Virus record (IMG/VR): IMGVR_UViG_3300032272_000010
Location: 5,733-69,732 of that record
Length of the DNA: 64,000 bases
Reading direction: 5' to 3' (one strand)
Source of the DNA: a virus
Lineage: Duplodnaviria > Caudoviricetes
Positions 194-51,941 of the stretch are shown in pieces. Both the position numbers and the translations under genes were made by a program. Each line of letters opens with the position of its first letter. The stretch's first letter is position 1. Below the pieces are notes generated by a model. The model saw nothing but the letters and a program-made list of their open reading frames with translations, was not told the DNA's origin and made no database searches.

Positions 194-261
194 GTTTAGA
201 TTCTCTATATTAAGTTAAGTTTGTCGAAGGCTCTGATGTCCTTCATATAAGATACCCTTAT

Positions 262-705: not shown

Positions 706-910
706 TTGGCATATCCTTGATTGAGGTGGTGAGTATGATTAATATTAGAAAGGCTAAGAAGCCTATAACAGGTTTCAAAGGCAGGTACGTGACCGCCAAA
801 GCCCCTAGGACGTACCCAAGGGTTACAAGTACTACGTAAATTTTCATGAAAGTCTCCTTATTGTGTTCTTTCATATAAGATACCGCTTTTTCCGCGTAAT
901 AAAGCCCCAT
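695..910 (-). CDS. Small two-TM membrane protein (true start probably downstream, at MKEHN or MKIYV)
   Basis: Two hydrophobic stretches; the annotated start overlaps a terminator hairpin. Confidence 0.55.
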   Translation of the reverse strand: MGLYYAEKAVSYMKEHNKETFMKIYVVLVTLGYVLGALAVTYLPLKPVIGFLAFLILIILTTSIKDMPNDQ

Positions 911-3076: not shown

Positions 3077-3092
3077 TCATTAATTTAACGGG
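3077..3092 (-). promoter_or_regulatory. Putative phage RNAP promoter, copy upstream of the lysis cassette
   Basis: CCCGTTAAATTAATGA; matches the motif at 24463, 38227 and 51926 over its first 13 nt. Confidence 0.55.
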
Positions 3093-11381: not shown

Positions 11382-14300
11382 TTATCTACCTGCTTCGTGA
11401 TTGTTTCGGTTGACACCTTTTGCAATCTGAGGCAGCATCTTATAGATTTCGCTACGTGTTTGACGCGAAATATCGCCTGTTATGCTGATGTGGAAGGTCG
11501 AATCACCCCTTCCGCTAGCCATCGCTGGGCTGGGCTTGATAAGCGAGGTCGTAGAGCTGACTGAAGCACCGACCATACCACCAGTAGCATAACCATCTAT
11601 CCTGTTACTATTTATCGCAAACAGTAAATCTTTATGCTTAGCGGTTTGTGCTGCGTTGACAATAAACTCGCCTGTGGACAGCTTCGCATTGATGCTATCT
11701 GAGGTCCCAGTGCCTGGTCCTCTGAGAAGCCCTCCTGTAGCTGCATACGTACTGTAGTCCACGTAGCTAGACCCAGCTGAGGTGTCAGGAGCGCTGTTAC
11801 CCAGACCACCTAGCGCACCTACCACTGACTTGCCAATGCTCACAGCCAGCCCTAATAAGCTAGGCCCATCACCGCCGCCTGCTGTGAAGATACTATAAAG
11901 ACCTTTGAACAAGTTCGAGAAGGAGCCTGAGAGTATTGCCATTCCTGACTGGAAGATACCGCCTAACACCCCAAAGAAACCACCTTGCTTAGCTGAGTTT
12001 TCTCCCAACTTTGCAACAACAGTCGCTGAACCTTTCAAGCAAGGGTCTATACCTGTTTCACTACCGGGCACTGCACTACCGCCTTCAGAGCCACCTCTTA
12101 ACCATCCTGACACACTTCCCCAGAACTTTTGACCCAGGCCTTTTAGCTGACCTGTAAGCCAACCGTCCTCACCTGTTATAGGGTCTAAGAGCGCATCCAC
12201 AAAGGTGTCTAGCACCGAGGATGTAAATGCATCCACAACGCCTGTGATCAAGTCTTTAACATCACCTGAACCATCTAGAAGACTTCTAAACCCTTCATTT
12301 ACGCTGGAGCTCACTGAATCTGCAAATGTCTCAGCAGCAGCTCTCGCTTTCTCAGCAGGATCTCGACTAGCCGTCTCAATATGTTCAGCTATTTGTCGAA
12401 GTATTTCATTGTAGGTGAAGCGTGCGCTTCTCGCGAGAGGTCCGCCAGCTGCTTGCTCCACTGCTATTCGCGCATTGTCAGCCTTAGTGACGAGACTTTC
12501 TAAGTACGCGCTATTCACCTCGGTAAACAAGTCTGAAGTCTCCGACTCAAAGCCTATATCATGCAGCGACAGACGGCCCTGTAAGTTCTTGACAACAGGC
12601 GCTGGCCCTTTGCTAAGCTGTTTCTGAAGCACTTTTATCTGCTCTATGAAAGAGACTACAGGCGCTGCTGAGACACCATCAAGATCGGCGGTCTCCATCT
12701 TTGCAGCCCAATTAGTAGCTCTATTGAACATACTTATCAGCTCAGGCCTCGAGAGCTTATGGAGGTTCTTCTGGAGACTTTCCAGTGCAGGGTAAGCCTC
12801 GACTATCGAGCCCAATAATTCGCGATTAGACAACGAGTCCACATTCTGCGCACTTACCGAGGACTTTCTATTGGCCTCCACTTTAGAGCGCCTTGCCGAT
12901 AACGAAGTAAATGTCGATTCCACTTCAGCGAGATCTGCTACTAACTGGGAGATGTTCTTGACGTTGTTTTCGTCTTGAAGCGCAAGTCTGATACCCTCGG
13001 CCTCTTGACGTGCAGCGAGAAGACCTGCAACCACGCCATCATCCATGTACTGGTACAGGGCTTCATCAATACCTGCAGCACTGAGACTTTCCAATATCTT
13101 AGTAGGCGTCGAATGGAGGCCTTTCAAGGCAGCTTCCGACAAGGTTCTTTGGAATGCTGCCTGCCTCTTGAGTATCTTAGAGACCTCTGCAAAGTCTGCA
13201 TTCTTGCCTAGTGCAGCCATTTCATGCGAGATGCTACTAAGGCCCTTTGAGGCGGCCAGTAGCTTGGTCAATTCAGCCTCGTCGAACAGACTCGTATCTG
13301 AGATACCTATTTCAGACAGTGTAGAGGCGAGCGTCTCAGCTGTGTAGTTGACTTTTGTAGTGGCTAGCTTAGCCAGTCGCAAATCTTCTAGAGCGTCCTC
13401 GATAAATGATGGCTCATTTGTGTACATAGCTCCTGACAAGCGTGTCAATGCACCTGACACAGAGAGAATCTGCTTCTTGGCCTCTCCAAGCCCTACATTA
13501 CCCACCAGTGTGTCGAAAGAGAGCCCTACAGTGTCCGCGAGCTCTTTCAAAGGGTCTGCTGAGAAGTGAGAATTGACTGACTCCTCAACTATCTTGGCGG
13601 CTTTCTTGACGTAGTCGTCTAGGGCTTTTCGCTTGTTCTCTATCTCTGGAACAAGATCCAGCTCGGCCTGCCCCTTATTGGATAAGAAGCTGAGTATACC
13701 TGTGCTACCTGTAGTGGTCTTGAAAGATTCATTACCCTCTTCATTAAAAGACTTCTTGAAACCTTCCAGTTCTTCCAGGTCTTTCAGCAATTTGGCTTTG
13801 AAAGATTTAGAGAAACCTGCTGTGGTTGTTTCAGAGAACACTGGCAGAAGTTTAGCCATACGCTCATGGAATACCTTATTATAGGCACTTGCATCATTGT
13901 ACGCGAGGCTCTGCACAAACTCATTAAATTCACGACCTAGCAGCTTTCTATTCGCCAGATTGTTATTAGCCTCACCGGTAGTGCCGATATCTTCATCGGC
14001 AAGCTTCGAGGCTCTTTCACCGTAACCCTCTAGGACACCTAGGTCACCAGGCCTTAGCGCAAAATCTCGCGTATTCAAGGTCAAGTCTAGCTTACTCAAG
14101 TTAGCTTCAAGACCCGCGATACGTGAATCAAAAGCCTCTATCTGAGCTGCTCTCTTGGCAAAGGCAGAACCACCTGACATAGCATCCCGTATGACCTTCT
14201 CATAGCGATACACTTTCTCTAAAGCGTCTTCTATTTCGAAAGGATCTTGTGGCAACTGCCCCGGAGTGTTGACTAACTTATCGAAATCCTTTGCGTTGCG

Positions 14301-17300
14301 GTAGTAGCCTATCAAACCCCTGGACAACTCTTTCTGAAAGGTGGAACCGATATCAAGTTCCAACGACTCAAACTCAGATACAGCAGCTGTCAGTTTATCA
14401 AAACCGATGGGTTTAACATTGGCACCAAACACATGACGCCCTTCGCTTAGAGCATCTCGGGCTTTCTTACGTTCGCCTCTCGTCGCAGAGGGGTTCAATA
14501 GAGTCGTAAAGCGTCTCTCTGCAATCAAAGCATCTACAAAGCCCTGACCGATCTCTCCACCGATAGACGAACTTCTCTTGAACAGGTCATCCATTGAGGC
14601 CTTGAACTCACCCGTAGAAAAGGCTTGACGTGATCTAGCCGCATCAAGTGTTGACTCCATCCCTCTTTTCAGAGTCTCTATCTCTTTACGCAGGCTGGCC
14701 TCGACGCGTCCTGAGTTGGCCTTCTGATCAGCGGCTTCACCGATCCTATCCTCCAGTTGCTCAAGCCGCCGCTTGATCTTGTTAGTGACTCTCTTGCCAG
14801 CCCTGTCCATATCTATCTCAGGGATGTACCAAGTTATCTTGAACTCTTGTTTAGCAAACTCTGCCAGCTCTTTAGAGAGGCCTGTACTCTCGTCAGTCTG
14901 AAGCTCTTTCTTCCAAAAGAATATAAGCTTCTTAGCAGCTTCTAACTGCTTCTTGACGCTTTCTAAGAACGTACCTTTCTCACCAAACAGGAAAGTGTAC
15001 AGAAGGCCTGCGCCTACAGTGACCACTCCGACTAGCGCCGCAATAAGTAGAGCTGGGACGCTAACGACAGCTGAAAGAGCGATACCAACAGCTGCGGCAA
15101 CTCGTACAGCAATCTTCCTGACAACACCTAAGAGGCTTGCAAGGAATGCCTTTCCAAAGGAAGACGCTGCAACAACACCTGCGATAGTGCCGAAGGCAGC
15201 ACCAAACTCGCCACCTAACTGGGAACCGAGAGTTCCCCCAATAGCTGCGCCGAGAAGCCCTGGTAATAAGCTTCTCAAAGGTGACATAGCGAGTAAGACT
15301 GTTCGAGACACACCTACTGCGTAACTACCAAAAGCAGCTAAAAGACTGCCTGCATGACCGGCCACCTTGAAGGCAGTGTCTTTCGAGATAAACAGGAGAG
15401 CTAGCCAGCCTACCGTGATGGTTTCTAGAACTGTGCCAACAGGATTACTATTGAAGTTCTTTTCAAACGAACTGAAGAAGCTATCTAGGACACCTACTTC
15501 ACCTAACTGATCGGCAGTGTCTTCACCTGCTCTCACGATACTACTAAACAAGAATAGCACCGCACCAAGCACAGCGAACTTACCATACTTAGAGAACAAG
15601 AACTTCTTGAGAACGCCTTGTATACCACCCTTCTGGTCTAACTTATATTGAAAGGCAAAGGATGCAGCGAGTATATCTCCATACAGCTTTGTGACAGCCG
15701 TTGAAATAGCTGCAAATTTAGTTGAGAAGAAGTCGCCGCTAAAAGCTCTCTGGAAGCCTGCCGCAGATTTAGCGAAGCCGACCTCCATACTAGTGCTAGC
15801 ACCAATAGCCAGATTCCTGACGTATTTGTAGAACTTAGCAAAACTCTTGACGCCTGTATCGATCGCGTGATCAAGCTGTTGGTTCATGTCAGTAGAGAAG
15901 GCTTTTACAAGATCTCCCAGGCCTTTAAACAAACTCGCTTTAGAGAAGCCCTCAAGGCTGAAAATCTTATCAAAGGTCTTTGAGCTTGCGATACCAGGTG
16001 CAAGCTTTGCGAACAAGCTTACGAAAACGGAGCCTACCTTCTTTATCCCACTAATTATACGTGGAATGCCCCCAGCGCCAAACAGCGCAAAGTACATCAA
16101 ACCGCCCTTTACAGCGAACTCAAAGAAAGAACCCTTCTCTAGTACTCCATCAAACACACCTAGATATGCAAGAACGGAACCTAACGCAGCGATGATCTGG
16201 AGGGTGGCACCTTTGCCGAATAGCACTGAACCTATCACGCCTTTCTTGCCAAACGAAGAGGCTACCTTTCCTGCAAGGGTCTGTATCTCCTCAATGTATC
16301 CAGGAAACACCCCTAGGTGTTTCAACAGGTTGAGCACAGAAGGCCCAAAGAAGTAAGCGCCCAACAGCCCTAGAGCGCCTGACGTACCAGTAGCGTCACC
16401 TATAGCGAATATCCCTGCTATGGCTGTACCTATTACAGGAATGCTCTCTAAGAAGGAGCGTGTGAAGCTAGAAGCAGCAGCTGCAAACCCCTTAGCAAGA
16501 TCGGGTAGGCTTCTAAGGATAGCACCTGCTAAAAGGCCTAGGGCTTCACCGATTATTGAACCTAGACTTCCTTCAATTTCCTTACCTGTGAGTCTTTCAA
16601 TAAACTGTGATGCTACCCCTAAAAGAGTGTGCAAGAGCACTTTGCCAAAGGCTTGTGGTATAGACTTAGCTTGGAACAGTTTTGTGAACTGCCCTACATT
16701 AGCCACGACAGTTGCAGCTAGCAACGTTTTAAGTGTTACACTAGCCTTTACAAAAGCTTCTGAAACAACATCACCAAGCTCCGTGGCATCTATCAAGTTG
16801 GAGATACTAAACTTTGAACTCTCAAAAGGGTTCTGTAAAGTGAAGGCTGAGCCATTCAGAGCGCCAGCACCTTGTTCATACAGACTTTTGAAAACTTGTT
16901 CAGCACCTCTCCTGAACTTGAGCAGACCTGCTTTCGACTTGGCCCACAACGTACTGGAGCCGTTGACCACACTGTCTACGAGGTCTGTCCACCAAGAATT
17001 CCCTATCACTTTGTCGTAAAGCCAGAAGAAAGCTTTCTCAGCGCCTTCAGCGAACTTCTGAATACCTTTCAAAGCAACTGTCAGACTATCCACCAACAGT
17101 GCTGTAGCAAACGCACCTGAGAGTATCACAAGATTTTGAGCGATACTCAACAGCACAGGCGTTATTGTGGCACCTGCCAAAACCGCTAGACTGAGCTGTG
17201 CAACGAAATTAGAGATGACATAACCTATCGCTACGAACGAGACATACACGGAGGAAGCCACAAGTGAGAGGGTTGCAAAGGCAACAACTACAACGCCAAG

Positions 17301-19259
17301 AGTAGGGTGTATGTCTGTCAGCACATCCAACAGTGCGATGAATGTTGAACTGACTAGAGTCTTGAAGGTCGCGAAAATAGCTACAGTGTCAACTAGGAGT
17401 TTCTTGCTGAAATCAATAACACCGTTTATAAGGTCAGGCCACCATGAGTTGCCTACCACTTTGTCATATAGCCAGAAGAAGGAGCGCTCAATCTTTGTGA
17501 CAAAGGTAGAAATAAAGTCAGAGATCTGTTCCAAGGCTGATTTCTTGCCTGTGAAAGCGCCTATAACTTTTTCAAACAAACTCACTTTAAAAGGTTTAGA
17601 AAGAGCTGTACCGATAACTGCCACGGCACCTTCGACAGCAAAAGCTGTTGTCCATAAAGGGTCTAAGAAGACTTTCAATTGCCCTAATGCATCTCGCACT
17701 ATCTCTGCGAAGATGCCAAGAGCGCTACTAGCCATATTAAAGGCCAAGGGCAATGTCATGAAGGCGTCGCGCATTGCACTGAATACCTGAAACAGTCCAG
17801 GTGCAAGTGTGTCAAGCAGCAACCCACCGGCTTCGTAGAACTTTCTAGACGTTCCTGAGATACCTCTCAAGAGTTCGATCAAACTTTCGCCGAGTGTAAA
17901 CAGTTGACCTGGCACGAAACCTATAAGGCCGTCACCGATTAATCCGAAGTACCTAGCGCTCTTCTGAGCGAAGGTGTACAATACCACATCGGTGGATATC
18001 AGGAAGCTGGCAATAGAACCGCTGTTAGCTACTACGGCTTTTGCTAGATCTCTGAGACCTGCAGCATACTGCCGTAAGTTCTTAGTACTGAAAACTTTCT
18101 GGATGGTCTGGACGTCAAAGCCAGAAGCTGCCCAATACCTCGGTGAGAGCCTCTTTAAGTTTCTTACAGCTATCTCAACATCACTCTCTATAGCGATCAC
18201 GTCTATGAATTTGAAACGCCGCCATCTGCTGTACCAACCACCGAAGAAGTCATCAAGACTTCTTATAGCGCCTCTAAGGTCTCCTTTAAGAGTCCTTGTA
18301 AGGTAGCCACGAGGGATTACTGCTAAGAACTGTTTACCAAGCGTTAGCAAGATAGAGCCTAGAGGCTTGAGGATCCCTATAAATGTCTGGTTAAAACGCT
18401 GCAGACTGATATTCATGTCTATACCGAAGTCGAAAGCAGACTCGGAAGCTTCACGCATTTTATCAGCAATCTTCGCCACGCCTCTTGACAGGGCGACACT
18501 TAAGTTCAAGCCTTTGTCAAAAGAGAACAGCATGAGCTTGGTGCTGTCGAGAAGTACGGCATTGTTCTGACGCAAGGTAGGAACTACATTGGCAAACTCT
18601 TCACCAATCTTACCAGCTTGTGAGCGAAGAGCATTGAAGACTGTGAGAGTCGTCAGCTTGCCTTCTTCAGCCAGATCTTTCAAAGAACCGTAAGCCACAC
18701 CCATACCATCGGATATAGCTCTTGCTACTCTAGGCAGCTGCTCTAAAACTGCCAGCAATTCTTGACCACGTAGCTGACCACTAGAGAGGCCTTGACCCAT
18801 CTGCACAATAGCTGAGTTGGCAGACTCCGAAGCCGCTCCTGACAAGGTTATAGACTTCTGAATGGCCTCAGTTACCTTGAGTATTTTTCTTTGGGCAATA
18901 TTCTGCCCATATAGAGAGCGACCTAGCACCCCATAAGTGTTTATCACGCCTGTTAGCGCGGTTTTGGTACGTATTGATATTGCGAGGGACTCTTTCTGAA
19001 CTTCATTCAGTTCACGTGTTCGTCCGGTTACAACGGCAATCTTGTTTTCCATCTCAGCGAAATCCGAAGATATCTTTGAAACTGCTGTGAAGATACCCGC
19101 TGTTGCTGCAAAACCTGCGAAGGCTTTGACCAGACCGTTAACTGTTTTAGCGGCATTAGAAGTCGTCCTCTCGATATTTTTAACAGAATCATCTATTCTG
19201 CCTAAATCGCGTTCGGCCTTCGAGGTTTTAGCAGTTACGTCAATTACTACGCCTGTCAT
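11382..19259 (-). CDS. Tape measure protein, 2625 aa
   Basis: N-terminal tape-measure domain (AIVQMGQGLSSGQLRGQELLAVLEQLP), Ala/Gly/Leu-rich hydrophobic middle, C-terminal ATGG motifs; follows the tail chaperones. Confidence 0.9.
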   Translation of the reverse strand: MTGVVIDVTAKTSKAERDLGRIDDSVKNIERTTSNAAKTVNGLVKAFAGFAATAGIFTAVSKISSDFAEMENKIAVVTGRTRELNEVQKESLAISIRTKTALTGVINTYGVLGRSLYGQNIAQRKILKVTEAIQKSITLSGAASESANSAIVQMGQGLSSGQLRGQELLAVLEQLPRVARAISDGMGVAYGSLKDLAEEGKLTTLTVFNALRSQAGKIGEEFANVVPTLRQNNAVLLDSTKLMLFSFDKGLNLSVALSRGVAKIADKMREASESAFDFGIDMNISLQRFNQTFIGILKPLGSILLTLGKQFLAVIPRGYLTRTLKGDLRGAIRSLDDFFGGWYSRWRRFKFIDVIAIESDVEIAVRNLKRLSPRYWAASGFDVQTIQKVFSTKNLRQYAAGLRDLAKAVVANSGSIASFLISTDVVLYTFAQKSARYFGLIGDGLIGFVPGQLFTLGESLIELLRGISGTSRKFYEAGGLLLDTLAPGLFQVFSAMRDAFMTLPLAFNMASSALGIFAEIVRDALGQLKVFLDPLWTTAFAVEGAVAVIGTALSKPFKVSLFEKVIGAFTGKKSALEQISDFISTFVTKIERSFFWLYDKVVGNSWWPDLINGVIDFSKKLLVDTVAIFATFKTLVSSTFIALLDVLTDIHPTLGVVVVAFATLSLVASSVYVSFVAIGYVISNFVAQLSLAVLAGATITPVLLSIAQNLVILSGAFATALLVDSLTVALKGIQKFAEGAEKAFFWLYDKVIGNSWWTDLVDSVVNGSSTLWAKSKAGLLKFRRGAEQVFKSLYEQGAGALNGSAFTLQNPFESSKFSISNLIDATELGDVVSEAFVKASVTLKTLLAATVVANVGQFTKLFQAKSIPQAFGKVLLHTLLGVASQFIERLTGKEIEGSLGSIIGEALGLLAGAILRSLPDLAKGFAAAASSFTRSFLESIPVIGTAIAGIFAIGDATGTSGALGLLGAYFFGPSVLNLLKHLGVFPGYIEEIQTLAGKVASSFGKKGVIGSVLFGKGATLQIIAALGSVLAYLGVFDGVLEKGSFFEFAVKGGLMYFALFGAGGIPRIISGIKKVGSVFVSLFAKLAPGIASSKTFDKIFSLEGFSKASLFKGLGDLVKAFSTDMNQQLDHAIDTGVKSFAKFYKYVRNLAIGASTSMEVGFAKSAAGFQRAFSGDFFSTKFAAISTAVTKLYGDILAASFAFQYKLDQKGGIQGVLKKFLFSKYGKFAVLGAVLFLFSSIVRAGEDTADQLGEVGVLDSFFSSFEKNFNSNPVGTVLETITVGWLALLFISKDTAFKVAGHAGSLLAAFGSYAVGVSRTVLLAMSPLRSLLPGLLGAAIGGTLGSQLGGEFGAAFGTIAGVVAASSFGKAFLASLLGVVRKIAVRVAAAVGIALSAVVSVPALLIAALVGVVTVGAGLLYTFLFGEKGTFLESVKKQLEAAKKLIFFWKKELQTDESTGLSKELAEFAKQEFKITWYIPEIDMDRAGKRVTNKIKRRLEQLEDRIGEAADQKANSGRVEASLRKEIETLKRGMESTLDAARSRQAFSTGEFKASMDDLFKRSSSIGGEIGQGFVDALIAERRFTTLLNPSATRGERKKARDALSEGRHVFGANVKPIGFDKLTAAVSEFESLELDIGSTFQKELSRGLIGYYRNAKDFDKLVNTPGQLPQDPFEIEDALEKVYRYEKVIRDAMSGGSAFAKRAAQIEAFDSRIAGLEANLSKLDLTLNTRDFALRPGDLGVLEGYGERASKLADEDIGTTGEANNNLANRKLLGREFNEFVQSLAYNDASAYNKVFHERMAKLLPVFSETTTAGFSKSFKAKLLKDLEELEGFKKSFNEEGNESFKTTTGSTGILSFLSNKGQAELDLVPEIENKRKALDDYVKKAAKIVEESVNSHFSADPLKELADTVGLSFDTLVGNVGLGEAKKQILSVSGALTRLSGAMYTNEPSFIEDALEDLRLAKLATTKVNYTAETLASTLSEIGISDTSLFDEAELTKLLAASKGLSSISHEMAALGKNADFAEVSKILKRQAAFQRTLSEAALKGLHSTPTKILESLSAAGIDEALYQYMDDGVVAGLLAARQEAEGIRLALQDENNVKNISQLVADLAEVESTFTSLSARRSKVEANRKSSVSAQNVDSLSNRELLGSIVEAYPALESLQKNLHKLSRPELISMFNRATNWAAKMETADLDGVSAAPVVSFIEQIKVLQKQLSKGPAPVVKNLQGRLSLHDIGFESETSDLFTEVNSAYLESLVTKADNARIAVEQAAGGPLARSARFTYNEILRQIAEHIETASRDPAEKARAAAETFADSVSSSVNEGFRSLLDGSGDVKDLITGVVDAFTSSVLDTFVDALLDPITGEDGWLTGQLKGLGQKFWGSVSGWLRGGSEGGSAVPGSETGIDPCLKGSATVVAKLGENSAKQGGFFGVLGGIFQSGMAILSGSFSNLFKGLYSIFTAGGGDGPSLLGLAVSIGKSVVGALGGLGNSAPDTSAGSSYVDYSTYAATGGLLRGPGTGTSDSINAKLSTGEFIVNAAQTAKHKDLLFAINSNRIDGYATGGMVGASVSSTTSLIKPSPAMASGRGDSTFHISITGDISRQTRSEIYKMLPQIAKGVNRNNHEAGR

Positions 19260-22427: not shown

Positions 22428-23615
22428 TTAGCTATGGAATACAGGCAAAATGCCTAGTGATAATGCTGAGGCACTCTTACGACCCCAAGAACCTGTAGTT
22501 GAAGCTAGCGTGCCTGAACCAACACTAGTTAGCAACTTAGGAGTTGAACCTTCAACAGCATACTGATATTCAGCATCAGAAGGGAAAGCTTCTTGTCCAC
22601 CCATCCAGTCGTAACCAGCAGGTGCAAGTACGTAGCCCCAACGATACCAAACAGCTGTAGTACCACCACCTTTATAGGCAGAAGCATCGCGCTCGATTTC
22701 TACATCATCAGGAACAGAAAGGTTCTCCATTGCTAGAGCGCCTGGCTGCACTAAGAAAGTAGTCTTAGTACCGACAATATCCACGCCCACGCCTGTATTC
22801 AGTTTTGTCAACTGAGCAGAGGTGAAGCCTTGAGAAGCACGCGTCTGGATTAGACGGAACTTGCCTTGGAACATGGTGTCGAATGAGATGTTACCATCAA
22901 CAACCTTGGTGTCGTCCACTAAGTTAGCAGCACGGAATGAAGCCATAACTTCAGGCGAAGTGATGCAATAAACGTACTCAGGCTCGTAGTCTTTATAAGC
23001 CATTCCAAGAGCTTGTAACAAGCCGCTTGCACGTTGTGCACCAATATTAGCAGCAGCAGCATCAGTAATGATTTTGCTAGCGCCTAGATCGACATAGAAG
23101 CCATACTTACCGTCAGTAGGGTCATTGTCAAAACTCTGACCACCAAGACCAGTCGCGCCACTTGCAGCAGCACAGCCAGCTAAGGCTTCAGAGATAGCTA
23201 CACCTTTCAATACAGAAAGAATAGCGTTGTGTTCGTCATTTGCTTGAGTTTCACCAAAGTCTTGACCGATCTTCTGCAGACCGTCTTCTTGGGTTACTAC
23301 TTGTTGCATGTTCACTTTCTCAGCACCGTGAGTACGTACAGTTTTAATGTAACGCAAGTAGTCGCGAGAAGTGGAACTTTTTGTACCAGCAGCGGAATCA
23401 GTAAGTGATGCCACGTTGATAGTCGGGTTTAAAGGTTTGCGCCAGCGAATCTGGCCAACAAATGTTTCAGTGCTTGGGTCGATCTGGTCGTTTCCACCTA
23501 CAATAGCAGTACCAGATAACTTACGTGCAGTTGTGTAAGCCTCATCTGAGTAAGCACCAATGGCCTCTTGCAAGACGTAGTTAGAAGCGCCTGCTAGGTT
23601 TGATTGAACTGTCAT
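22428..23615 (-). CDS. Major capsid protein
   Basis: 395 aa, strong codon bias, between scaffold and adaptor. Confidence 0.8.
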   Translation of the reverse strand: MTVQSNLAGASNYVLQEAIGAYSDEAYTTARKLSGTAIVGGNDQIDPSTETFVGQIRWRKPLNPTINVASLTDSAAGTKSSTSRDYLRYIKTVRTHGAEKVNMQQVVTQEDGLQKIGQDFGETQANDEHNAILSVLKGVAISEALAGCAAASGATGLGGQSFDNDPTDGKYGFYVDLGASKIITDAAAANIGAQRASGLLQALGMAYKDYEPEYVYCITSPEVMASFRAANLVDDTKVVDGNISFDTMFQGKFRLIQTRASQGFTSAQLTKLNTGVGVDIVGTKTTFLVQPGALAMENLSVPDDVEIERDASAYKGGGTTAVWYRWGYVLAPAGYDWMGGQEAFPSDAEYQYAVEGSTPKLLTSVGSGTLASTTGSWGRKSASALSLGILPVFHS

Positions 23616-23625
23616 GTCTTAATCC

Positions 23626-24330
23626 TTAACGATTTTTAGGTCGGCTCCGGACAAGTTTACCTTCTTCGGCCATCTTAATGACTTCCGACTGTGACTTATC
23701 ACTGAGTTTCCCTTTGGGTTCGGGTTCTCCGCCAGTAGGTGGTTTTAAGTCCGGCCCACTTGACGATTTTGGTTTTAGCAAGAACTTATTGTCTTCCTGC
23801 TCGAAATATGTCTTGACAACAGTGCTCAAAGAGTCACCTGCCTTACTCCGCCATACACCTTGGTCATCCTTAACTAGGCTGTCTGCAATTTCACGCTTGG
23901 CTAAACCTTTAGCCTTAGCATTGCGAAAAGTCATTACACCTAATTCATTGGCGATCTGACCGTCTCTAGACAACTTAGTGTTCTCAGACGCTAATGCTTC
24001 TAGCTCTGCTCTCAAAGTAGTGTTCTGTAATTCCAGAGCTTCCTTTTCCTTACCCTCTGCCTTTAGCGAATCAATCTCGTTCTGTGTCATGGTGGCTTTT
24101 AGCTCTGCGACCGTGGTCAACAAAGTATCGCGCTCAGCATATGCACCGTCGAGTTTAGTCTTGATGTCTTTAAGCTCTTCTGCAACAGCCGTTTGTACCG
24201 CAGCCTTTAACTCAGGAGTGCTGAGGTCTACTGTGGGTGGTGTTGCTGGTGGGGTTACAGGAGGTGTCACCGGTGGGGTTACAGGAGGTGTCACGGGGGG
24301 AGTTACAGGTGGTGTTACTGGATCTGGCAT
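23626..24330 (-). CDS. Capsid scaffolding protein with N-terminal (PVTP)6-PATP repeat
   Basis: Coiled-coil, charged sequence directly upstream of the capsid gene. Confidence 0.75.
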   Translation of the reverse strand: MPDPVTPPVTPPVTPPVTPPVTPPVTPPATPPTVDLSTPELKAAVQTAVAEELKDIKTKLDGAYAERDTLLTTVAELKATMTQNEIDSLKAEGKEKEALELQNTTLRAELEALASENTKLSRDGQIANELGVMTFRNAKAKGLAKREIADSLVKDDQGVWRSKAGDSLSTVVKTYFEQEDNKFLLKPKSSSGPDLKPPTGGEPEPKGKLSDKSQSEVIKMAEEGKLVRSRPKNR

Positions 24331-24462: not shown

Positions 24463-24478
24463 GGGTTAATTCAACGGG
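24463..24478 (-). promoter_or_regulatory. Putative phage RNAP promoter upstream of scaffold/capsid
   Basis: CCCGTTGAATTAACCC, identical to the copy at 51926..51941. Confidence 0.65.
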
Positions 24479-24484: not shown

Positions 24485-27400
24485 CTAGCCAACACCGTAC
24501 CAACCGAGGTCTGAACTGAAGTCACTTTTGAGCTCTTTCAGTATCTCCTCAGCTCCTAGCACATCTGTGTCTTTAAGCAGACGCCCTCCTACTCTAGAGC
24601 GGCCAACAACAGGTATTAGCCCGATGTCAATCGCTTCATTCAAGTATTGGTCGTAGAGATGTCTAGGAAGACCTCTTGCAAGCATCTCATCTAGGGTCTG
24701 CTTAATAACATTACGATCTACCAAGTTAGAATAGATCTGACGAAGTGCCTGACGAGCATTCAACATTTCTGCTGCATTAGCGAAGAAAGCATCGTGAATT
24801 GTTGATGTTTGGACATCTGCTGACTTACCCCATAAATGGAAACGCTTAACGATGACGGCATCATTTGAGTGGTTGCCGTTTACACCGTAGGCTGTCCTAG
24901 CTTTGGTGGCATCGGCTACATCATTGATATTACCTGAGTCATTTATAAACTGCTCCCACCAAGTGGCCTGAGACTTCTGAGGTATTTGCAAGATATTATT
25001 CACACGGTTGCCATTCTTGTCTATATATGACAATTTCTCTTCAAAGCTCTGTGTGAAGTTCTGCTCAATTACCTTTCCGTCAAAGTTCACCCAGGGCACA
25101 TTAGTCCAGCGCTTAGGCAGCTTATTGGCAGTCATAAATTCGATCCCATCAGACAAGGTCTGTCCTAACAACTTATAACGCAAGAACTTCACACCAGTCC
25201 TTCGAGCTTCAGGCGGTCGAGCACCTAAGAGCATGTCATAAAGGCTGCTATCCTTTCCGTAGGGGCTGTAACGCTTCATGAACTCTTCAGTTATCAATGT
25301 GCCTTTCTCTATACCAAATAGGCTAGCTACACTGTCAGGGATCTTTTGACCTTTACCTGCCTCACCATAGAAGGATAACTTAAAGATGCTCTTCCAACCG
25401 AATGCACTATCAGATGGTTTAGCATTCTTCAAGAAGTCTTCAGCCAACCTTCCAAAATACTTAGTAAAGTCTTTAAGAATAGGTACTTGTATGCTCAAAT
25501 GCTCGCTCATTATCTTGGCTATCTGACGGAAGTCATCAGGGGTTATCACACGGTTGTAACTCTTGGACATGCGCTCTAGCAAACCTTTTGTCTCAGGTGT
25601 GAGAAACCATAAGTCTTCCATCATGTCAAGGCCTGGACTAGTGCCTTTGTTAAAGGTGTCCCTGACGTCTTTTCTGAGGGCTCTTAGAAGCGCTTCACCT
25701 TCCTTGTCAAAACGAGCTATCTTAGCTGCTTGGGCTGAAATCTCATTTAAGACCTCATCACGCTCAGCTGCTCTGACAACCAGTGTACCTTCTTCTCGAC
25801 CAAGTATTTTACCCAGCTTGGCTTCGACATTCAGGATACCGGTACGCTCACCCGCACCATAGAAGGACACCATGTTCTGCGCCTTACTAGCCTTTCGAAG
25901 ATCACGCTCTGTCAATCCAAGTTTCTCATTAAGTTGTCTAAAACGAGGGTCATTGAAGGTCTCCCTTGCAACCTCATCGTAGAGTCGCCTCTTCTGGGTA
26001 GTTGGCACAACATTGCTAAGCTCAGCTAGTTGCTTGTTCTTAGTCGTCAGAGCGATAATCTGAGCACCAGAAGAAGATGCATCCTGCTCCAATGCCAGTG
26101 ATATCTTGTAATTAGAGAGGGTCTCTAAAGATCGCTTAGTGTACAGGCCTTCTAAATGGTCATCTATCTTGGTCAACTCAATAGCAAATCTAAAGAACTT
26201 TCCTAGTTCCTCGGGGTCTACCTGAGCTACGATAGGTGACTCCAGTATAGCACGAATGTCACTAGGCTTCCCACGACGCATTTTACGACCTATCGCAATT
26301 AGTTCGGGACGCCACTTGTTAGCAATCTTCTGCCTTCCTGTGATGGTGAGTGAGTCAAACCGACCTTCAAAGAAGTCAGTCAAGCCACCTAAGAAAGCAC
26401 CTACTTGATCCTGCAAATTTAAGAACTCAGCAGCACTGAAATTCTGTGACTTAGCAGTATTCAAGAAGGGTCTGAAGGTCTCACCTGACTGTGGTCCTAT
26501 TAAGCCTCTGTCATAGACTCTAGCACGGTGATCGATGAAAGGCTGATTAGAGAACGCAGCATCTTTCTTCCTGAGCCACTCCATAGCTTTAAAACGCTCG
26601 TAGGCATCGCCCCTGGAGGTGAGATACTTACGGTAACCGTTCAAATCATCGTAGAAAGAAGCCCTACCTCGGTCATCCTTAAAGTGCATTAGCTTGTCCA
26701 CGAAGTCGTAGAAGTCTTCATCAACCTTGTACTCGGCCTTAGAAGCCCAGTTGAGTGCGTCCACAAGATCACGATCTACGAGGTCTTCAGGGAAGTCACT
26801 GAAAGCACTAGTTGAGGTTATAGGTATACGAGTATCATAGTCGCCCTTCAAGCCGTCATTCACAAAGTATGTCTTGTATCCTGTCTTGAACTTCAGACGA
26901 TTCCCAGGCGTTGTTACACCGACTCTCAGACCTACCTCTACAGCTCTCGTGAGCTTAGCATAACGCTGAACCCTTGGGTCTGTCACTCTGATGTTCCATG
27001 AAGTAGTATCGTAGTAAGCACCAAAATATTGATTGCTCATACGACTCTTCATTCGACGTTTCTGAGTCCCGAAGGTCTCTACTTTAAAGAACTTCTCAAC
27101 ATTTTCAGCTTCAAGGACTCGCATCCCTGCTTTGTACCAAGAGAGGCGATCCCCATTATAGTTGGCCATCTCATGAAGGTCTCTTCCGAGGGCAACAGCA
27201 AACTGATCCCTATCAGGCATGTCAGCCATGGAGAGTCTGTGAGCGAACCTCAAGTAGAACTGTTCAAGGTCTTGATTAGTCATCCTTGAATGTAGCTTAA
27301 GAGGTATACGGTAATCGAACACGTTACGCAACTCTCTAGCAATCTTAGGAGCTGTCTTGTCCTCCCAAGTGTTCTTGGCTTTGATGTTGCTTATGAAATT

Positions 27401-29089
27401 GTCGTGCAACTCCTGCAACTGTACAGCGCCTAACACAGGATCTAGATAATTATCTTGTGACAGACGCTTCAGGAGGCCGCTATCAGCTCTCAAAGCAGTC
27501 TCAAGAGAATCAGAGATGTTCATCACATCAAACTTCATCTGGCTCACTGAAACAGCCTTAAAGTTCTGCCACACCTCACCGTTCTTGCGGTAACGCGTGA
27601 AGAGTATACGGAGGTTGTCAACAACGACGGCACGCTCATTGATACTCATAGTGTCTTCGAGCTTCTTATCTAGTGCGTGTATAACGCCTTTATCAGCTGC
27701 ACTGAGTGACTCAGAGGCTTCTACACGTTTGAGCGCATTAGTGTGCACAAGAGGCATAGGCTGATATCTGCGAGGGTCATCGTAGCGCCCTGTCACAGGG
27801 TTGAAGACCATCTTGTCATCAGTTGGCGGTCTGTTCAGTACAGCAGCCTTCGTGCGCCTCTTATTGCCTACTAATACGCCTCTATAGTTTGTCAAGCTCA
27901 GTAAACCGTCGAGTTCAGTGGATTGTAGCTTATAGTAGGTAGCGAGATTGTTCAACAACATCTGATCGTCATAAAGATCTTCAGGTCTTGAGATACCCAG
28001 TCTTAGAGCATCTAGCTTGTTCTTAGCAGTAGCAAACCGGACTGTTCCACCGACGGGAACATACTCAGATGATGTCAGCTTACGCAAAGTACGTAATCCT
28101 ACAGACTTACCTTCAGGATTAGTGAACTTATCAACAGTAAGTTGCTTCGTTCTGAACAATTCCAAGCGTTCTTGAGAGCCTAGATGCCGCAGTTGAACTG
28201 CTGATGTCTGTCGTCGCAGCCACACATCATAAGGGACACGTAATGGCGTCAAGCCATCGTAGTATCCTCGCTGCTTCTTGGTCAAGCCTTTTAAGTTACG
28301 CTGACGTACTTGGGCAACACCCTCTAGTTTCTGCAGTGAGTCCCATGACTTGAACACTGGTGTGGTTATCGATCTACACCTATAGTGGGCTGGAGGTAGA
28401 TACTGAGTGTCACCTATCTCATAAATTGAGCCATCGCGGTGACTGCAAATTGGAGTCGTAGCGCTGTCGAGAACGGCCACGTACTGCCACCCTTCGAGCG
28501 CTTTTTCGTTGGCCTGATAGACGGCATGGTCGGCTTGCGCGTACACAGAGGTGAGAGCTGTAGTGGTCAGAGCCCTTGACTGATTTCGGGTTATCTTATG
28601 GATATTTCCCTTACGGATGTTCTTGGCAATCTCAGGCATTGAAAGACCTTCAGAGATTCCCTTCCTGATCAGCTGGTCTACCTTCTTACGCTCCCCTAAG
28701 GTCAACCCTTTCCAGCCAGCTTCTAAAGTCTTGTTACCTAGTAACTTATTACTGAGCACCATGTCTTCCGATATACGTCGTGACTTTGTCTTCCAAACAC
28801 GCCCCATTACAGCTTCAATGTTCTGATACGCAAAGGAAGCTTGGTCACTGGCAAATGAACGCAAACTATTACGGCTTGCACGATAAGCTTCTTGCGAAAC
28901 TTTTAAGAATTCTTTGTCAAGTTGCGTTTTTAAGCTGGCCCGAGACGAATCCCTGACCAGCTTGTCCAACCGTTCTTTATGATTACCGAACACATCATCT
29001 ACTTGACCATGTAATCGGCGCTCATACAACCTGACAACTGCTGCTCTATCTACAATCTTATCATGTAGAACAGTATTAGCGTTGTCCAT
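24485..29089 (-). CDS. MuF (SPP1 gp7-like) head morphogenesis domain fused to a T7-type single-subunit DNA-directed RNA polymerase
   Basis: MuF: WQYVAVLDSATTPIC..RDG...PPAHYRCRS (aa ~200-240). RNAP: DHRARVY (~853), motif A EQDASSSGAQ (~1003), motif B KASKAQNMVSFYG (~1066-1078), NGNHSNDA, motif C IHDAF (~1433). Confidence 0.9.
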   Translation of the reverse strand: MDNANTVLHDKIVDRAAVVRLYERRLHGQVDDVFGNHKERLDKLVRDSSRASLKTQLDKEFLKVSQEAYRASRNSLRSFASDQASFAYQNIEAVMGRVWKTKSRRISEDMVLSNKLLGNKTLEAGWKGLTLGERKKVDQLIRKGISEGLSMPEIAKNIRKGNIHKITRNQSRALTTTALTSVYAQADHAVYQANEKALEGWQYVAVLDSATTPICSHRDGSIYEIGDTQYLPPAHYRCRSITTPVFKSWDSLQKLEGVAQVRQRNLKGLTKKQRGYYDGLTPLRVPYDVWLRRQTSAVQLRHLGSQERLELFRTKQLTVDKFTNPEGKSVGLRTLRKLTSSEYVPVGGTVRFATAKNKLDALRLGISRPEDLYDDQMLLNNLATYYKLQSTELDGLLSLTNYRGVLVGNKRRTKAAVLNRPPTDDKMVFNPVTGRYDDPRRYQPMPLVHTNALKRVEASESLSAADKGVIHALDKKLEDTMSINERAVVVDNLRILFTRYRKNGEVWQNFKAVSVSQMKFDVMNISDSLETALRADSGLLKRLSQDNYLDPVLGAVQLQELHDNFISNIKAKNTWEDKTAPKIARELRNVFDYRIPLKLHSRMTNQDLEQFYLRFAHRLSMADMPDRDQFAVALGRDLHEMANYNGDRLSWYKAGMRVLEAENVEKFFKVETFGTQKRRMKSRMSNQYFGAYYDTTSWNIRVTDPRVQRYAKLTRAVEVGLRVGVTTPGNRLKFKTGYKTYFVNDGLKGDYDTRIPITSTSAFSDFPEDLVDRDLVDALNWASKAEYKVDEDFYDFVDKLMHFKDDRGRASFYDDLNGYRKYLTSRGDAYERFKAMEWLRKKDAAFSNQPFIDHRARVYDRGLIGPQSGETFRPFLNTAKSQNFSAAEFLNLQDQVGAFLGGLTDFFEGRFDSLTITGRQKIANKWRPELIAIGRKMRRGKPSDIRAILESPIVAQVDPEELGKFFRFAIELTKIDDHLEGLYTKRSLETLSNYKISLALEQDASSSGAQIIALTTKNKQLAELSNVVPTTQKRRLYDEVARETFNDPRFRQLNEKLGLTERDLRKASKAQNMVSFYGAGERTGILNVEAKLGKILGREEGTLVVRAAERDEVLNEISAQAAKIARFDKEGEALLRALRKDVRDTFNKGTSPGLDMMEDLWFLTPETKGLLERMSKSYNRVITPDDFRQIAKIMSEHLSIQVPILKDFTKYFGRLAEDFLKNAKPSDSAFGWKSIFKLSFYGEAGKGQKIPDSVASLFGIEKGTLITEEFMKRYSPYGKDSSLYDMLLGARPPEARRTGVKFLRYKLLGQTLSDGIEFMTANKLPKRWTNVPWVNFDGKVIEQNFTQSFEEKLSYIDKNGNRVNNILQIPQKSQATWWEQFINDSGNINDVADATKARTAYGVNGNHSNDAVIVKRFHLWGKSADVQTSTIHDAFFANAAEMLNARQALRQIYSNLVDRNVIKQTLDEMLARGLPRHLYDQYLNEAIDIGLIPVVGRSRVGGRLLKDTDVLGAEEILKELKSDFSSDLGWYGVG

Positions 29090-29093: not shown

Positions 29094-30560
29094 TTACTCC
29101 TGTTGAGATTCATCGTCAAGGCTGACATCATCGTCAACCTCTTCGTTGAAAGAGTCCTCAGTTATTTCTTTTAAAGCATCATCGTCGTCGTACTCTGGCG
29201 GCACAAGGTCATTAGCCTTAAGAAGTGCCAGCCATACGCTTCGAGGTAGTAGCTTATTCTCGTACCATTCTGTAGCAAGACGTATCCACTCTGAACCTAG
29301 AGGCACAGGGTTAAAGTCTTCAGAAAGGTCAAACTTGATGTCGTCCAGATTGATAGTTATACCGTACTTCCAGTACAACATCACACCTAACACTTGTCGC
29401 ATCACTAGACTTATCTTGGTATTGAGAGTTCCTAGCTGAGCTGTCTGAGCCGCATTACGTATCTCTAAAGCAATCCCACTTTGGGCTGTCTCAGGTGATA
29501 ACATGCGGATACCTAACTTAGCCATCTCGATCATGGCATTAGCAATAGCTGTCTCCATGTCTTTCAAAGCATCTGTAGGTGTCTCCATGACGCCAATAGT
29601 ATCGCCCTTAGCGAGCTTAAGCCAAGAGCCTAATCCACTGCCTACAACCTTCTGAAAGTCGTCTTCAGACATATCGGAGGCAATGTAAGGCGTGTACGTT
29701 GATGCACCATATAGGAGGTGATTTCTCCGGCTCATCTTATTGTAGAGAGAGACTTCCTTATCGACCAACGGTGTCAACAGCGGAGCACACACATCAATAC
29801 TACCGTTAAGTGGCCACGCTGGGATGAATTTAAGTCGCTTCCCTTGCATGGTGATGTCGACGTGGGTGTCCTTGAGATTCCAGTCTTTGCCATCTGAAAT
29901 GAACTCACGTATCTGGTAGGCACCAGTACTATCTAATTCATGCACGTAAACGATAGGGACGACCTTAGGGTGAAAAGGACTGTCGGGATCAGGAGTCTCC
30001 ATAGACTTCTTAACGATCACCTGTGAGAGTACCGTCTGACCGTCTTCATCCTTCACACGCCAGTTGATCACCTCCTCAGCTGTCCATAACTCTGGGAACG
30101 GAAAGATGTTATCTGGAGTATCTTCTTCGATGTTGTGAGAAGGGTGACTTAACCAGACCCAAGCTCTCGACGTCCTGAGTTCCTCCCATAAAGCCTCATC
30201 AAGAAACGATACAAGCGGCGCACCGTCCTTTCCAAAGCTGTTCCTGAGCCAGTCAGCAGCCTCCGAGGGGTACGCTTCTGGTACATCTAGAGTAGGGGGC
30301 TTCCTAAGAAGACCACCCACTAGCATCCTTGAGAACTGAGCAACAATAGCAGGGAGTTCTGCCTCGGACTTGTAGAAGTCGTACTGCTGCTGCGTCATAA
30401 CAGGTGAGAAAGGTAGCAAGATGTTGCTGAAGGATGTTGAATCAAGAGTCTTGTCTAAGATTTTGACAGCGCGTTCACCTTCACACATTGCTTTGTTCTT
30501 CTCCCATATAGGAGCATAATGTAGATATTCATCACAGGGTGTTGCAACTGTCTTATTCAT
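29094..30560 (-). CDS. Portal protein (DUF4055-like)
   Basis: 488 aa, between the terminase region and MuF; LKRIPAWPL-like FIPAWPL, YNKMSRRNHLLY and SGIALEIR patterns. Confidence 0.8.
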   Translation of the reverse strand: MNKTVATPCDEYLHYAPIWEKNKAMCEGERAVKILDKTLDSTSFSNILLPFSPVMTQQQYDFYKSEAELPAIVAQFSRMLVGGLLRKPPTLDVPEAYPSEAADWLRNSFGKDGAPLVSFLDEALWEELRTSRAWVWLSHPSHNIEEDTPDNIFPFPELWTAEEVINWRVKDEDGQTVLSQVIVKKSMETPDPDSPFHPKVVPIVYVHELDSTGAYQIREFISDGKDWNLKDTHVDITMQGKRLKFIPAWPLNGSIDVCAPLLTPLVDKEVSLYNKMSRRNHLLYGASTYTPYIASDMSEDDFQKVVGSGLGSWLKLAKGDTIGVMETPTDALKDMETAIANAMIEMAKLGIRMLSPETAQSGIALEIRNAAQTAQLGTLNTKISLVMRQVLGVMLYWKYGITINLDDIKFDLSEDFNPVPLGSEWIRLATEWYENKLLPRSVWLALLKANDLVPPEYDDDDALKEITEDSFNEEVDDDVSLDDESQQE

Positions 30561-32123: not shown

Positions 32124-32377
32124 TCGCTAGTCCTCTCATCCGTAAGTCCCAGAGAAGCCATAAATTGATCTCTGTTTAGTGTTACGCCCATTAGCTCTGA
32201 GACCTTCTCCTGTAGCATCTGTACGTGGGTATCGTGGATCAGCGTAATAGGCTCGTCAATAGAAGCTCGATAGCTTGTTACTTGGCCTACTTCTTGCTCA
32301 ACATCAGGGGCTATATGATTGCCCCGTATTTGATATATTTTTACTGTCATGCTGCACCTCCATCGGTGATTGTCCAT
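32120..32377 (-). CDS. Hypothetical protein (probable start MTVKIYQ)
   Basis: ORF with GGAGG upstream of the internal ATG. Confidence 0.55.
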   Translation of the reverse strand: MDNHRWRCSMTVKIYQIRGNHIAPDVEQEVGQVTSYRASIDEPITLIHDTHVQMLQEKVSELMGVTLNRDQFMASLGLTDERTSE

Positions 32378-35852: not shown

Positions 35853-37199
35853 TTAAAAGTTAGGGCTCTGTGCTACGCCAGGCCTGTTGTTGATAGGGAA
35901 CTCATATTCCATTCCGTACCTTATACCGTCAGAGAAATGCTCTACACCTTCCTTCTTATCGATAGTTGCAGAGTCACTGTTGTTGTTCACCCATATGGTG
36001 CGTTCTAATGACTTGATAGTGCCCTTACATTCAGGCCTCACAAAGAGATTCGTTTTGCCAGTAGCAGTGCCTAACATACGATTCACACAAGCAACACTGT
36101 CAACAATCCCAGGGGATTTACCTCTAGTTAACACTTGAATGTTATACTTCTTGAGTATTGTAAAGTCAGTTTGACCGACTGGTGCACTGGTCTTCCTACT
36201 GTTACCGGTGGGGTCAGGGTAAGCGATAATCCTACGATCTGGGCCGTACTTATAACGGATAGCCTTGGCCAGTTCTTCGGTGTCAGGATGTCCCTGAAAT
36301 TCACTAATAAATTGAGCTTGACCGCCTCTTTTAGCCCAGAAAGATGTTGCTTGAATGCCAACGTTAAAGTCGATATTGCAACGCACAGTCTCGGTCTTCG
36401 TAAAGTTCGGTATATCGTCTCTCACATGTTTCGTTCTATCGAACATATAGAAGACTGATGCACCAGACTCTTTAAAGGCCGCCATGTATTCCGACGCGAA
36501 TGTTATAGGGTCACGATTCTCTTTAATCCTTTCGATCTCGTTGGGATCAATATAGGGCGATGCTCTGTAGTCAAAGCGCCACGATCTCCAGGTCTTATCG
36601 TGTTCACGCATGTTAAACATGTCGTATAAATAATTGTAGCCCTTAGGGGTGCTGATTGTCAGAGCACGGCCAGCTGAAGGAGCACCATGAAAAGCTGCAC
36701 GTTCGGGAGACCACCGAGTATTGATACATGGTTCTATAATGTCCTCCCAAGCCTTCTTAAAGCCCATCCCTTTGTTCCAGGAGGACACTTCATCATTCAC
36801 AACAAAATAAGCCCCTTTACCACGCATTCTTTCAACAGCTTCATAAGACATTAAACGAAGCATCACATTGTTTGGAAAGGTGAATACTCCTTTGTCCTTA
36901 GAGCCTTTTATAGCGTAGTTTATGAGGCCAAGTTCATGAGCTAACAAAGGGTAATAGATGTCAGTCACTTGGTCATAAGTAGGGGCAATAATAAATACAT
37001 TCTTGTTAGGTACTTTAGCAGACATCTGCATTAATTCAACTGTCGCTGTACTTGCAGTAACAGCACCTAAATAGCTTTTACCAAAACCTCGAGCACATAC
37101 AGCTGTCCCGAAGCGGCACAATTTGTCTAAAAACAAAGCATCAAAGATGTCTGATTGAGAAGACGTTAGATTGATGTTATTAGTCATCCTCGGAGACAC
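35853..37199 (-). CDS. terL: Terminase large subunit
   Basis: Walker A CARGFGKS, Walker B FVVNDE, coupling motif ISTPKG, nuclease acidic residues (IDFNV, EHFSDGIRY). Confidence 0.92.
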   Translation of the reverse strand: MSPRMTNNINLTSSQSDIFDALFLDKLCRFGTAVCARGFGKSYLGAVTASTATVELMQMSAKVPNKNVFIIAPTYDQVTDIYYPLLAHELGLINYAIKGSKDKGVFTFPNNVMLRLMSYEAVERMRGKGAYFVVNDEVSSWNKGMGFKKAWEDIIEPCINTRWSPERAAFHGAPSAGRALTISTPKGYNYLYDMFNMREHDKTWRSWRFDYRASPYIDPNEIERIKENRDPITFASEYMAAFKESGASVFYMFDRTKHVRDDIPNFTKTETVRCNIDFNVGIQATSFWAKRGGQAQFISEFQGHPDTEELAKAIRYKYGPDRRIIAYPDPTGNSRKTSAPVGQTDFTILKKYNIQVLTRGKSPGIVDSVACVNRMLGTATGKTNLFVRPECKGTIKSLERTIWVNNNSDSATIDKKEGVEHFSDGIRYGMEYEFPINNRPGVAQSPNF

Positions 37200-37581: not shown

Positions 37582-37679
37582 AAGAACTCCTGTTAAGTAA
37601 TTTATTGGATCCTTAGATTAATTTATAAAGTCTCTTTGAGAAGCTCATCAGAAAACCCTTCGAAGAGATGTTATCCGTG

Positions 37680-37708
37680 AGGGAGGGGGTATGGGTAAAA
37701 CCCTCCCT
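37680..37708. other. G-rich hairpin element, copy 2 (inverted relative to copy 1)
   Basis: AGGGAGGG-N13-CCCTCCCT; the plus strand reads GGGAGGGGGTATGGGTAAAACCCTCCC. Confidence 0.55.
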
Positions 37709-38226: not shown

Positions 38227-38242
38227 GGGTTAATTTAACGGG
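38227..38242 (-). promoter_or_regulatory. Putative phage RNAP promoter upstream of the repeat region and terS/terL
   Basis: CCCGTTAAATTAACCC. Confidence 0.6.
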
Positions 38243-38293: not shown

Positions 38294-38355
<62 letters not shown>

Positions 38356-51925: not shown

Positions 51926-51941
51926 GGGTTAATTCAACGGG
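51926..51941 (-). promoter_or_regulatory. Putative phage RNAP promoter heading the small-gene region
   Basis: CCCGTTGAATTAACCC. Confidence 0.65.

Follow-up and report, generated by a model that had tools for sequence, protein, structure and literature searches.

RNA polymerases (RNAPs) carried in the virion are known from few phage lineages, and each has informed the understanding of how infection starts and of polymerase evolution. N4 (Schitoviridae) packages and injects a T7-superfamily single-subunit RNAP, gp50, for its early genes, after which a second T7-like polymerase, RNAPII, takes over. In the long-tailed Thermus phage P23-45, the virion polymerase gp96 is fused to a structural protein and transcribes the pre-early genes, including that of a second, non-virion phage RNAP (bioRxiv 10.1101/2022.12.01.518664). 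In crAss-like phage phi14:2, gp66 is described as a large virion-packaged protein carrying the early polymerase (bioRxiv 10.1101/2020.03.07.982082). Another kind of delivery is represented by the MuF-type head protein gp7 of SPP1, which is targeted by the portal to the procapsid interior in few copies and aids the start of infection; SPP1 virions without gp7 are only ~25% infectious, and toxins fused C-terminally to gp7-like proteins are thought to use the same route (PMC6316719; PMC5512222). Here we describe a gene that joins a MuF head protein to a T7-type RNAP. It lies in a 64-kb window (the whole stretch of DNA analyzed, 64,000 nucleotides, positions 5,733 to 69,732 of the 69,732-bp IMG/VR virus record IMGVR_UViG_3300032272_000010, hereafter G000; CheckV completeness 100%). 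We directly observed the domain identities, the fold, the conservation of residues and of the fusion, a second RNAP and two classes of promoter-like motif. From these we infer packaging, ejection, activity and the assignment of polymerases to motifs, and we consider it reasonably probable that the fused product is a capsid-packaged early polymerase in an N4-like relay.

The fusion gene occupies 24485..29089 on the minus strand, stop codon included (positions are those of the window unless stated otherwise), as defined by the list of open reading frames (ORFs), the translation, Pfam and PHROG. It is a stop-free frame of 1534 amino acids (aa) whose ATG (29087-29089) stands 4 nucleotides (nt) past the stop of the portal protein gene (29094..30560, minus strand; phrog_145, E 1e-55; DUF4055). 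The original prediction, made by a model from the DNA letters, had described this as one uninterrupted ORF directly after the portal gene, and so it is, with a 4-nt spacer. The first 340 residues (28070..29089, minus strand) form a MuF, SPP1 gp7-like head-protein module. Phage_Mu_F (PF04233) matches aa 136-240 (28370-28684) with an E-value of 2e-13, its 51.3 bits exceeding the cut-off of 29.6, and aa 52-345 are spanned by PHROG 241 'head morphogenesis' (E 3e-52). The signature positions YVAVLD (203-208) and HYRCRS (235-240) fall in the stretch around 200-240 in which MuF motifs had been predicted. This is the sole MuF domain in the genome, and its gene has the position of a MuF gene, directly 3' of the portal gene; the order is identical in EBPR siphovirus 1 (JF412302) and in DSS3_VP1 (NC_055826), a cultured roseophage siphovirus of the Naomviridae. 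The features tested place the fused protein in the MuF family.

In their AF2 model (pLDDT 86), aa 1-450 are mostly helical, with a low-confidence hinge at aa 341-348. Foldseek gave no match for this model in the PDB at E <= 0.001, so the MuF assignment comes from Pfam and PHROG only. A single complex prediction of the portal with MuF aa 1-345, run without controls, scored 0.00, which speaks neither for nor against a contact. Between the hinge and the polymerase lies a conserved helical linker domain (aa 349-555; 27425..28045, minus strand) with an invariant G404, to which no known fold was assigned; in the AF2 model, it comes before the stretch matching T7 RNAP.

The remainder, aa 556-1534 (24485..27424, minus strand), is a complete T7-type single-subunit RNAP module according to structure, profile and catalytic residues. 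Scanning the translation located DHRARVY at aa 853-859 (26513-26533), the motif A aspartate D1003 (codon 26081-26083), motif B with R1065, K1066, K1069, Y1077 and G1078 (25856-25897), and motif C with H1432-D1433 (D1433 codon 24791-24793), all on the minus strand; DHRARVY, D1003, the K/YG motif and HD1433 are each where the original prediction had named them. Pfam RNA_pol (PF00940) matches aa 1346-1472 above its curated cut-off (E 2e-9), and phrog_414 'RNA polymerase' matches aa 990-1084. The AF2 model of aa 400-1534, built with 49 homologues, has a pLDDT of 85 and a pTM of 0.82. In VIA-align, aa 556-1534 (model residues 157-1135) align with residues ~30-883 of T7 RNAP at Z 30.1 and a root-mean-square deviation of 3.2 A over 529 aa, reaching both C-termini, and Foldseek matches the polymerase model to T7 RNAP with E 4e-18. 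A family profile searched against the PDB found T7 RNAP (E 4e-21), mitochondrial RNAPs and N4 RNAPII (6dt7; E 3.5e-7); this profile was needed, as a single-sequence phmmer search of the PDB with the whole protein returned nothing relevant.

The fused module is ~14-18% identical to T7 RNAP in the structural alignment. Motifs B and C are 355 residues apart, as against ~173 in T7, and these ~180 extra residues indicate an insertion in the fingers region. A long beta-hairpin precedes motif C in the AF2 model, as befits the specificity-loop region. The C-terminal residues, WYGVG here and WYGIGP in a distant clade, are conserved (63 related loci) and, in the structural superposition, coincide with the C-terminal end of T7 RNAP, which is located at the active site. 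Since the C-terminus of the polymerase must stay free, fusion at the N-terminus is the arrangement that leaves the enzyme functional. By the features tested, catalytic motifs and whole-chain fold, the fused protein belongs to the T7-type RNAP family, and the polymerase is complete and apparently active.

How does this protein compare with the systems described above? It shares with T7 RNAP (gene 1) the whole-chain fold, the catalytic motifs and the conserved free C-terminus, but the T7 protein, with 883 aa, is a free enzyme that is not part of the virion and whose gene the host polymerase expresses early. By analogy, the fused protein would work like N4 gp50, yet it stands outside the gp50 family in size, flanking domains and polymerase lineage. 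N4 gp50 has ~3500 aa and its own N- and C-terminal ejection and encapsidation domains, belongs to a short-tailed phage and has no MuF, whereas the fused protein has 1534 aa and an N-terminal part that is MuF and not gp50-type. Its core is nearer to the T7 and mitochondrial RNAPs (Z 25-30) than to N4 mini-vRNAP (Z 14-19), with scores of Z 27-30 for T7 RNAP and Z 25-27 for mitochondrial RNAPs, and the family profile gave no N4 mini-vRNAP match in the PDB. The RNAPs of P23-45 are two-barrel enzymes unrelated to T7, and their carrier is the tape measure protein in the tail, not a portal-associated head protein. The gp66 protein of phi14:2 has a two-barrel fold and no MuF, and its phage is short-tailed.

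With SPP1 gp7, Mu F and the MuF-toxin fusions, the protein has in common an N-terminal MuF encoded right after the portal and, in the fusions, a C-terminal cargo. The cargoes of MuF-toxin fusions are, however, small toxins or host-modifying enzymes of ~100-300 aa, found mostly in prophages, while here the cargo is a ~980-aa polymerase with a 200-aa linker domain, in lytic-type genomes of ~70 kb. Pfam and PHROG detected no toxin family in the fusion, which places it outside the class of MuF polymorphic toxins and polyvalent proteins; the logic of delivery would be shared with the MuF toxins, the class of cargo is not. Virion polymerases and MuF cargo fusions are thus each known, and their combination seems new: a full-text literature search found no description of a MuF-RNAP fusion, although subscription journals were mostly outside its coverage and may hold one.

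The fusion is widespread. A word-indexed search returned 491 relatives, and among the best 120 of these most have ~1520-1700 aa and both Pfam domains, often on contigs of 60-90 kb. Relatives with RNA_pol only (~880-1300 aa), again among the best 120, come mostly from short contigs and are therefore probably truncated. The one-protein arrangement is kept in more than 100 homologues among the matches listed. An exhaustive search of representatives at 50% identity gave 138 clusters, in which every full-length representative has 1400-2070 aa and a C-terminal RNAP. In an alignment of 24 diverse full-length homologues (21-58% identity), nine MuF columns (D208, T211, C215, P232, P233, H235, C238, R239, S240) and seven polymerase columns (R857, D1003, K1066, K1069, Y1077, G1078, D1433) are invariant in all 24, and Pfam detects MuF in 24/24 and RNA_pol in 19/24. 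As the MuF and catalytic columns are invariant, selection acts on both halves, and their linkage is old.

The window derives from a single metagenome assembly, and a chimera of assembly or a missed frameshift could in principle have joined two genes. This explanation is refuted, and we leave it practically no probability: hundreds of assemblies made independently from many sources share the architecture, and the fusion is present in the cultured phages DSS3_VP1 and DSS3_PM1. The claim of one gene, not two, also survives the apparent exception of EBPR siphovirus 1, in which the fusion gene looks split into gp47, the HNH gene gp48 and gp49. The break (L001 9176-9402) is due to a group I intron (Rfam E 2e-8) within the polymerase domain. 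Other relatives (records G005, G008, G010, G011) carry in-frame, intein-like or stop-containing, intron-like inserts near aa 980-1113 and aa 1255-1309, those of G005 and G011 being in-frame, and no insertion in the relatives separates MuF from the polymerase. Homing elements at such places are typical of sequence that is conserved and needed.

Besides the fusion, the genome encodes a canonical T7-like RNAP of 763 aa (G000 2369-4660, that is L005:2369-4660, minus strand, 1.1-3.4 kb outside the window at its low end; PF00940 230 bits; T7 RNAP E 4e-44). The two enzymes are only 24% identical over the motif A region. Both were present in 6/6 genomes checked (G000, four long IMG/VR relatives and DSS3_VP1). 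DSS3_VP1 has the same gene order: its portal gene is followed by a 1463-aa 'head morphogenesis' gene (the fusion homologue, gp108, YP_010105321), and it encodes 'RNA polymerase' gp080 separately. The original prediction of a MuF-tagged transcription system therefore needs a correction: the architecture, its conservation and the packaging-tag logic of SPP1 gp7 speak for it, but with a canonical RNAP co-resident it is not the only transcription system of the phage. Because this RNAP is also encoded, the fused enzyme is one of two polymerases in a probable relay, and the layout is the two-polymerase layout of N4. We also observed that the 332-nt gap ahead of the canonical RNAP gene contains a strong hairpin and, after it, a T12 run.

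Two classes of promoter-like motif accompany the two polymerases. Class B, RGTATCTTATATGAARG with a conserved A-rich upstream part, has two copies upstream of the canonical RNAP gene, both intergenic and in sense orientation, with 0 expected by chance. These copies, GGTATCTTATATGAAAG (868..884, minus strand) and GGTATCTTATATGAAGG (240..256, minus strand), lie in the small-gene block leading to that gene; the consensus is AAAnnGCGgAAAAAnnnRGTATCTTATATGAAAGA. Class B occurs in 101 IMG/VR stretches. Among the best 80 loci, 13 also hold a homologue of the canonical RNAP (41-56% identity), and in all 13 of them the motif shares the strand of the gene for this homologue and precedes it by 0.7-3.8 kb. 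All seven near-complete records with class B carry the fusion too (7/7).

Of the five copies of class A, CCCGTTRAATTAACCC, four are in the window and the fifth is outside it; all are intergenic and in sense orientation, again with 0 expected by chance. The sites precede the block of single-stranded DNA-binding protein (SSB) and PolA, the middle block, the terminase genes, and the scaffold and capsid genes, and another follows the tail genes. The copy CCCGTTGAATTAACCC (24463..24478, minus strand) stands 6 nt after the stop of the fusion gene, upstream of the scaffold and capsid genes. CCCGTTAAATTAACCC (38227..38242, minus strand) lies within the 788 non-coding nt that precede the terminase genes; a further intergenic copy was found by motif scan at 51926..51941 (minus strand), and a degenerate one, CCCGTTAAATTAATGA (3077..3092, minus strand), in a 380-nt gap after the tail genes. 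Relative G001 has the same motif in the same places. Among close relatives, at least 12 have class A directly 3' of the fusion gene, and members of a distant clade conserve another motif in its place; such a lineage-specific change resembles the behavior of phage-polymerase promoters.

In DSS3_VP1 we found at least 10 copies of ATAGG[GT]T[GA]CGTTAAAG, which has the core CGTTAAA in common with class A; the motif scan placed copies (L006, L095) at 2338, 6585, 7413, 19242, 29401, 45931, 46398, 46556 and 59201. Three copies of the class B-like GCATCTATAATGAA are at 35811, 36258 and 67795. Sites of the ATAGGGTGCGTTAAAG type may be the candidate class for the canonical RNAP and those of the GCATCTATAATGAA type the candidate for the virion polymerase. 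DSS3_VP1 also has a direct terminal repeat of ~125 bp. Sites resembling those of sigma-70 were not enriched in our scans (10 vs 7.0 +/- 2.8 expected; 19 vs 23.4 +/- 4.9). The early promoters of N4 are DNA hairpins, and none are evident here. We considered N4-type hairpins as a defining feature and rejected them: class A shows partial palindromy and a short stem could form in some class B copies, but neither feature recurs consistently among the copies.

Together, these elements suggest the following program. The fused product would be a low-copy head protein with two functional halves. By analogy with SPP1 gp7, the MuF half would dock on the portal during procapsid assembly and bring the attached RNAP into the capsid. 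Translational coupling to the portal gene, with a promoter-like site only after the fusion gene, fits such a low-copy product. At infection, the protein would exit with the DNA or just before it and then refold, and the delivered RNAP would transcribe the first genes without the host polymerase. Its probable start sites are the class B motifs, in the small-gene block leading to the canonical RNAP gene. The canonical RNAP would then serve the class A sites at the head of the modules for replication, packaging and capsid and of the one after the tail genes. The simplest program for two T7-type polymerases and two classes of motif is a relay like that of N4 or P23-45.

Several points weigh against this proposal. 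Ejection of MuF proteins is not proven in every phage. The fused protein of 173 kDa would need to pass through a very long tail. The papers on DSS3_VP1 mention no RNA polymerase and report no virion proteomics, and none of the sequencing runs listed as carrying this sequence is an RNA run, the sole one being a sediment-metagenome DNA run from which the contig may derive. Moreover, the assignment of class B to the fused enzyme is a guess, as the host polymerase or the canonical RNAP could read these sites, and in a simple scan the TTGAAT within class A copies also scores as a -35-like hexamer.

Alternatively, MuF could be only an assembly factor, with the polymerase left out of the capsid, either because the fusion is cut or because it serves as a cytoplasmic late-gene polymerase made with the head proteins. 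Its gene is expressed with the late genes, and phage Mu F is often called a morphogenesis factor. We find this unlikely. No prohead protease gene was recognized by Pfam or PHROG, with only a weak match inside a scaffold-like ORF; a separate canonical RNAP is already available for the late genes; and the covalent link, present in 24/24 diverse full-length homologues and in every full-length representative, would be hard to explain if the halves separate.

The position of the gene allows another use of a polymerase at the portal. The fusion gene belongs to the late head operon, where it is flanked by the portal and scaffold genes and is close to the terminase, and the 788-nt region ahead of the terminase genes has a class A motif and a T30 run. 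A polymerase tethered to the procapsid vertex could act late there, coupling transcription or its pausing on concatemers to the start of packaging or to processing. Zhang and Studier reportedly found that T7 RNAP contributes to T7 DNA maturation. The canonical RNAP could, however, do the same without a fusion, published MuF cargo fusions are interpreted as proteins that get delivered (PMC6316719, PMC5512222), and the sequence gives no pointer to a contact with the terminase. We give this alternative little weight.

A delivered enzyme could also have a different main task, namely to pull the genome in by transcription, as in T7 entry, or to prime the first replication. This possibility follows the same packaging logic as the early-polymerase relay, and the very long tail and the 70-kb genome would suit it. 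T7-type and mitochondrial RNAPs do both jobs, transcription-driven entry and replication priming. Such a role, however, does not exclude early transcription and would normally go along with it, and the conserved class B motifs precede genes, with no genome end or origin identifiable where they stand. As the main function we hold it to be improbable, and a capsid-borne early polymerase remains our preferred reading.

The setting of the fusion gene is that of a long-tailed phage. Every gene of the genome is on the minus strand, and, read along the direction of transcription, the genome runs from small genes through the canonical RNAP, SSB with a kinase, PolA with the replication genes, and many small genes to terminase, portal, fusion, capsid and tail. 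The DNA polymerase A gene (window 62479-64000 and G000 1-475) is cut by the record ends; because both ends interrupt it, the record is a circular or circularly permuted assembly. The terminase large subunit gene lies at 35853..37199 (minus strand; Terminase_6N, phrog_2). Downstream of the fusion gene, the Pfam and PHROG scans identified a scaffold-like gene (23626-24330, minus strand) and, beyond it, the major head protein gene (22428-23615, minus strand). The tail region encodes a tape measure protein of 2625 aa (11382..19259, minus strand), which indicates a long non-contractile tail, as well as a major tail protein and a J-like central fiber. The tail-region proteins that were scanned gave no match to a sheath, in keeping with the siphovirus that had been predicted. 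At the usual 0.15 nm per residue, the tape measure corresponds to a tail of ~390 nm, which any capsid-borne protein must traverse.

Several other regions deserve mention. Between the terminase and portal genes, a 1043-aa ORF (32347-35478) could encode another internal or ejection protein; it has no Pfam or PHROG match and no similarity to the 2575-aa virion protein at the equivalent place in DSS3_VP1. The 788-nt non-coding region (37582-38369) precedes the small and large terminase genes and may be an origin or a packaging site. Along with its class A motif, it contains on the sense strand a GC hairpin followed by the T30 run (~38292-38323), as well as four tandem 23-bp repeats (~37760-37851). 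The gene for a B12-type ribonucleotide reductase is in two pieces, 57394-58440 and 55698-56615 (span 55698-58440), with a LAGLIDADG endonuclease ORF (56682-57320) between them. A homing endonuclease within an intron is the probable cause of this interruption, but at the gathering threshold Rfam detected no group I intron there. We also considered whether the fusion is tied to uracil-containing (dU) DNA, as the relatives DSS3_VP1 and DSS3_PM1 have such DNA. Unlike these relatives, the whole genome G000 has no dCMP-deaminase-family (PF00383) and no YfbR-like (PF12917) gene, and for this reason the link was abandoned. Genes for a nucleotide kinase-like protein and a DHH phosphoesterase are, on the other hand, present in G000.

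On a broader scale, the widespread long-tailed clade to which these phages belong, including the cultured uracil-DNA roseophages (Naomviridae), may have evolved its own host-independent transcription, in which a MuF-borne, near-canonical T7-type RNAP with class B sites is followed by an RNAP with class A sites and the host polymerase is dispensable throughout. This route would be separate from those of N4, crAss-like phages, P23-45 and jumbo phages. We hold this clade-wide reading tentatively, its chances being slightly below even. The design is common in environmental viromes, where it occurs in hundreds of contigs from many samples. It is testable at once, because it is present in the cultivable phages DSS3_VP1 and DSS3_PM1 (host Ruegeria pomeroyi), and DSS3_VP1, with two promoter-like motif families of its own, is a ready model for the relay. 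Two new orthogonal polymerase-promoter pairs may result. The finding also raises a physical question, namely how a 173-kDa protein would exit the capsid through a tail of several hundred nanometers. If the proposal is true, this would be the first delivery of an almost standard T7-type enzyme, and the first use for a polymerase of the MuF head-protein route, so far known only for small toxins.

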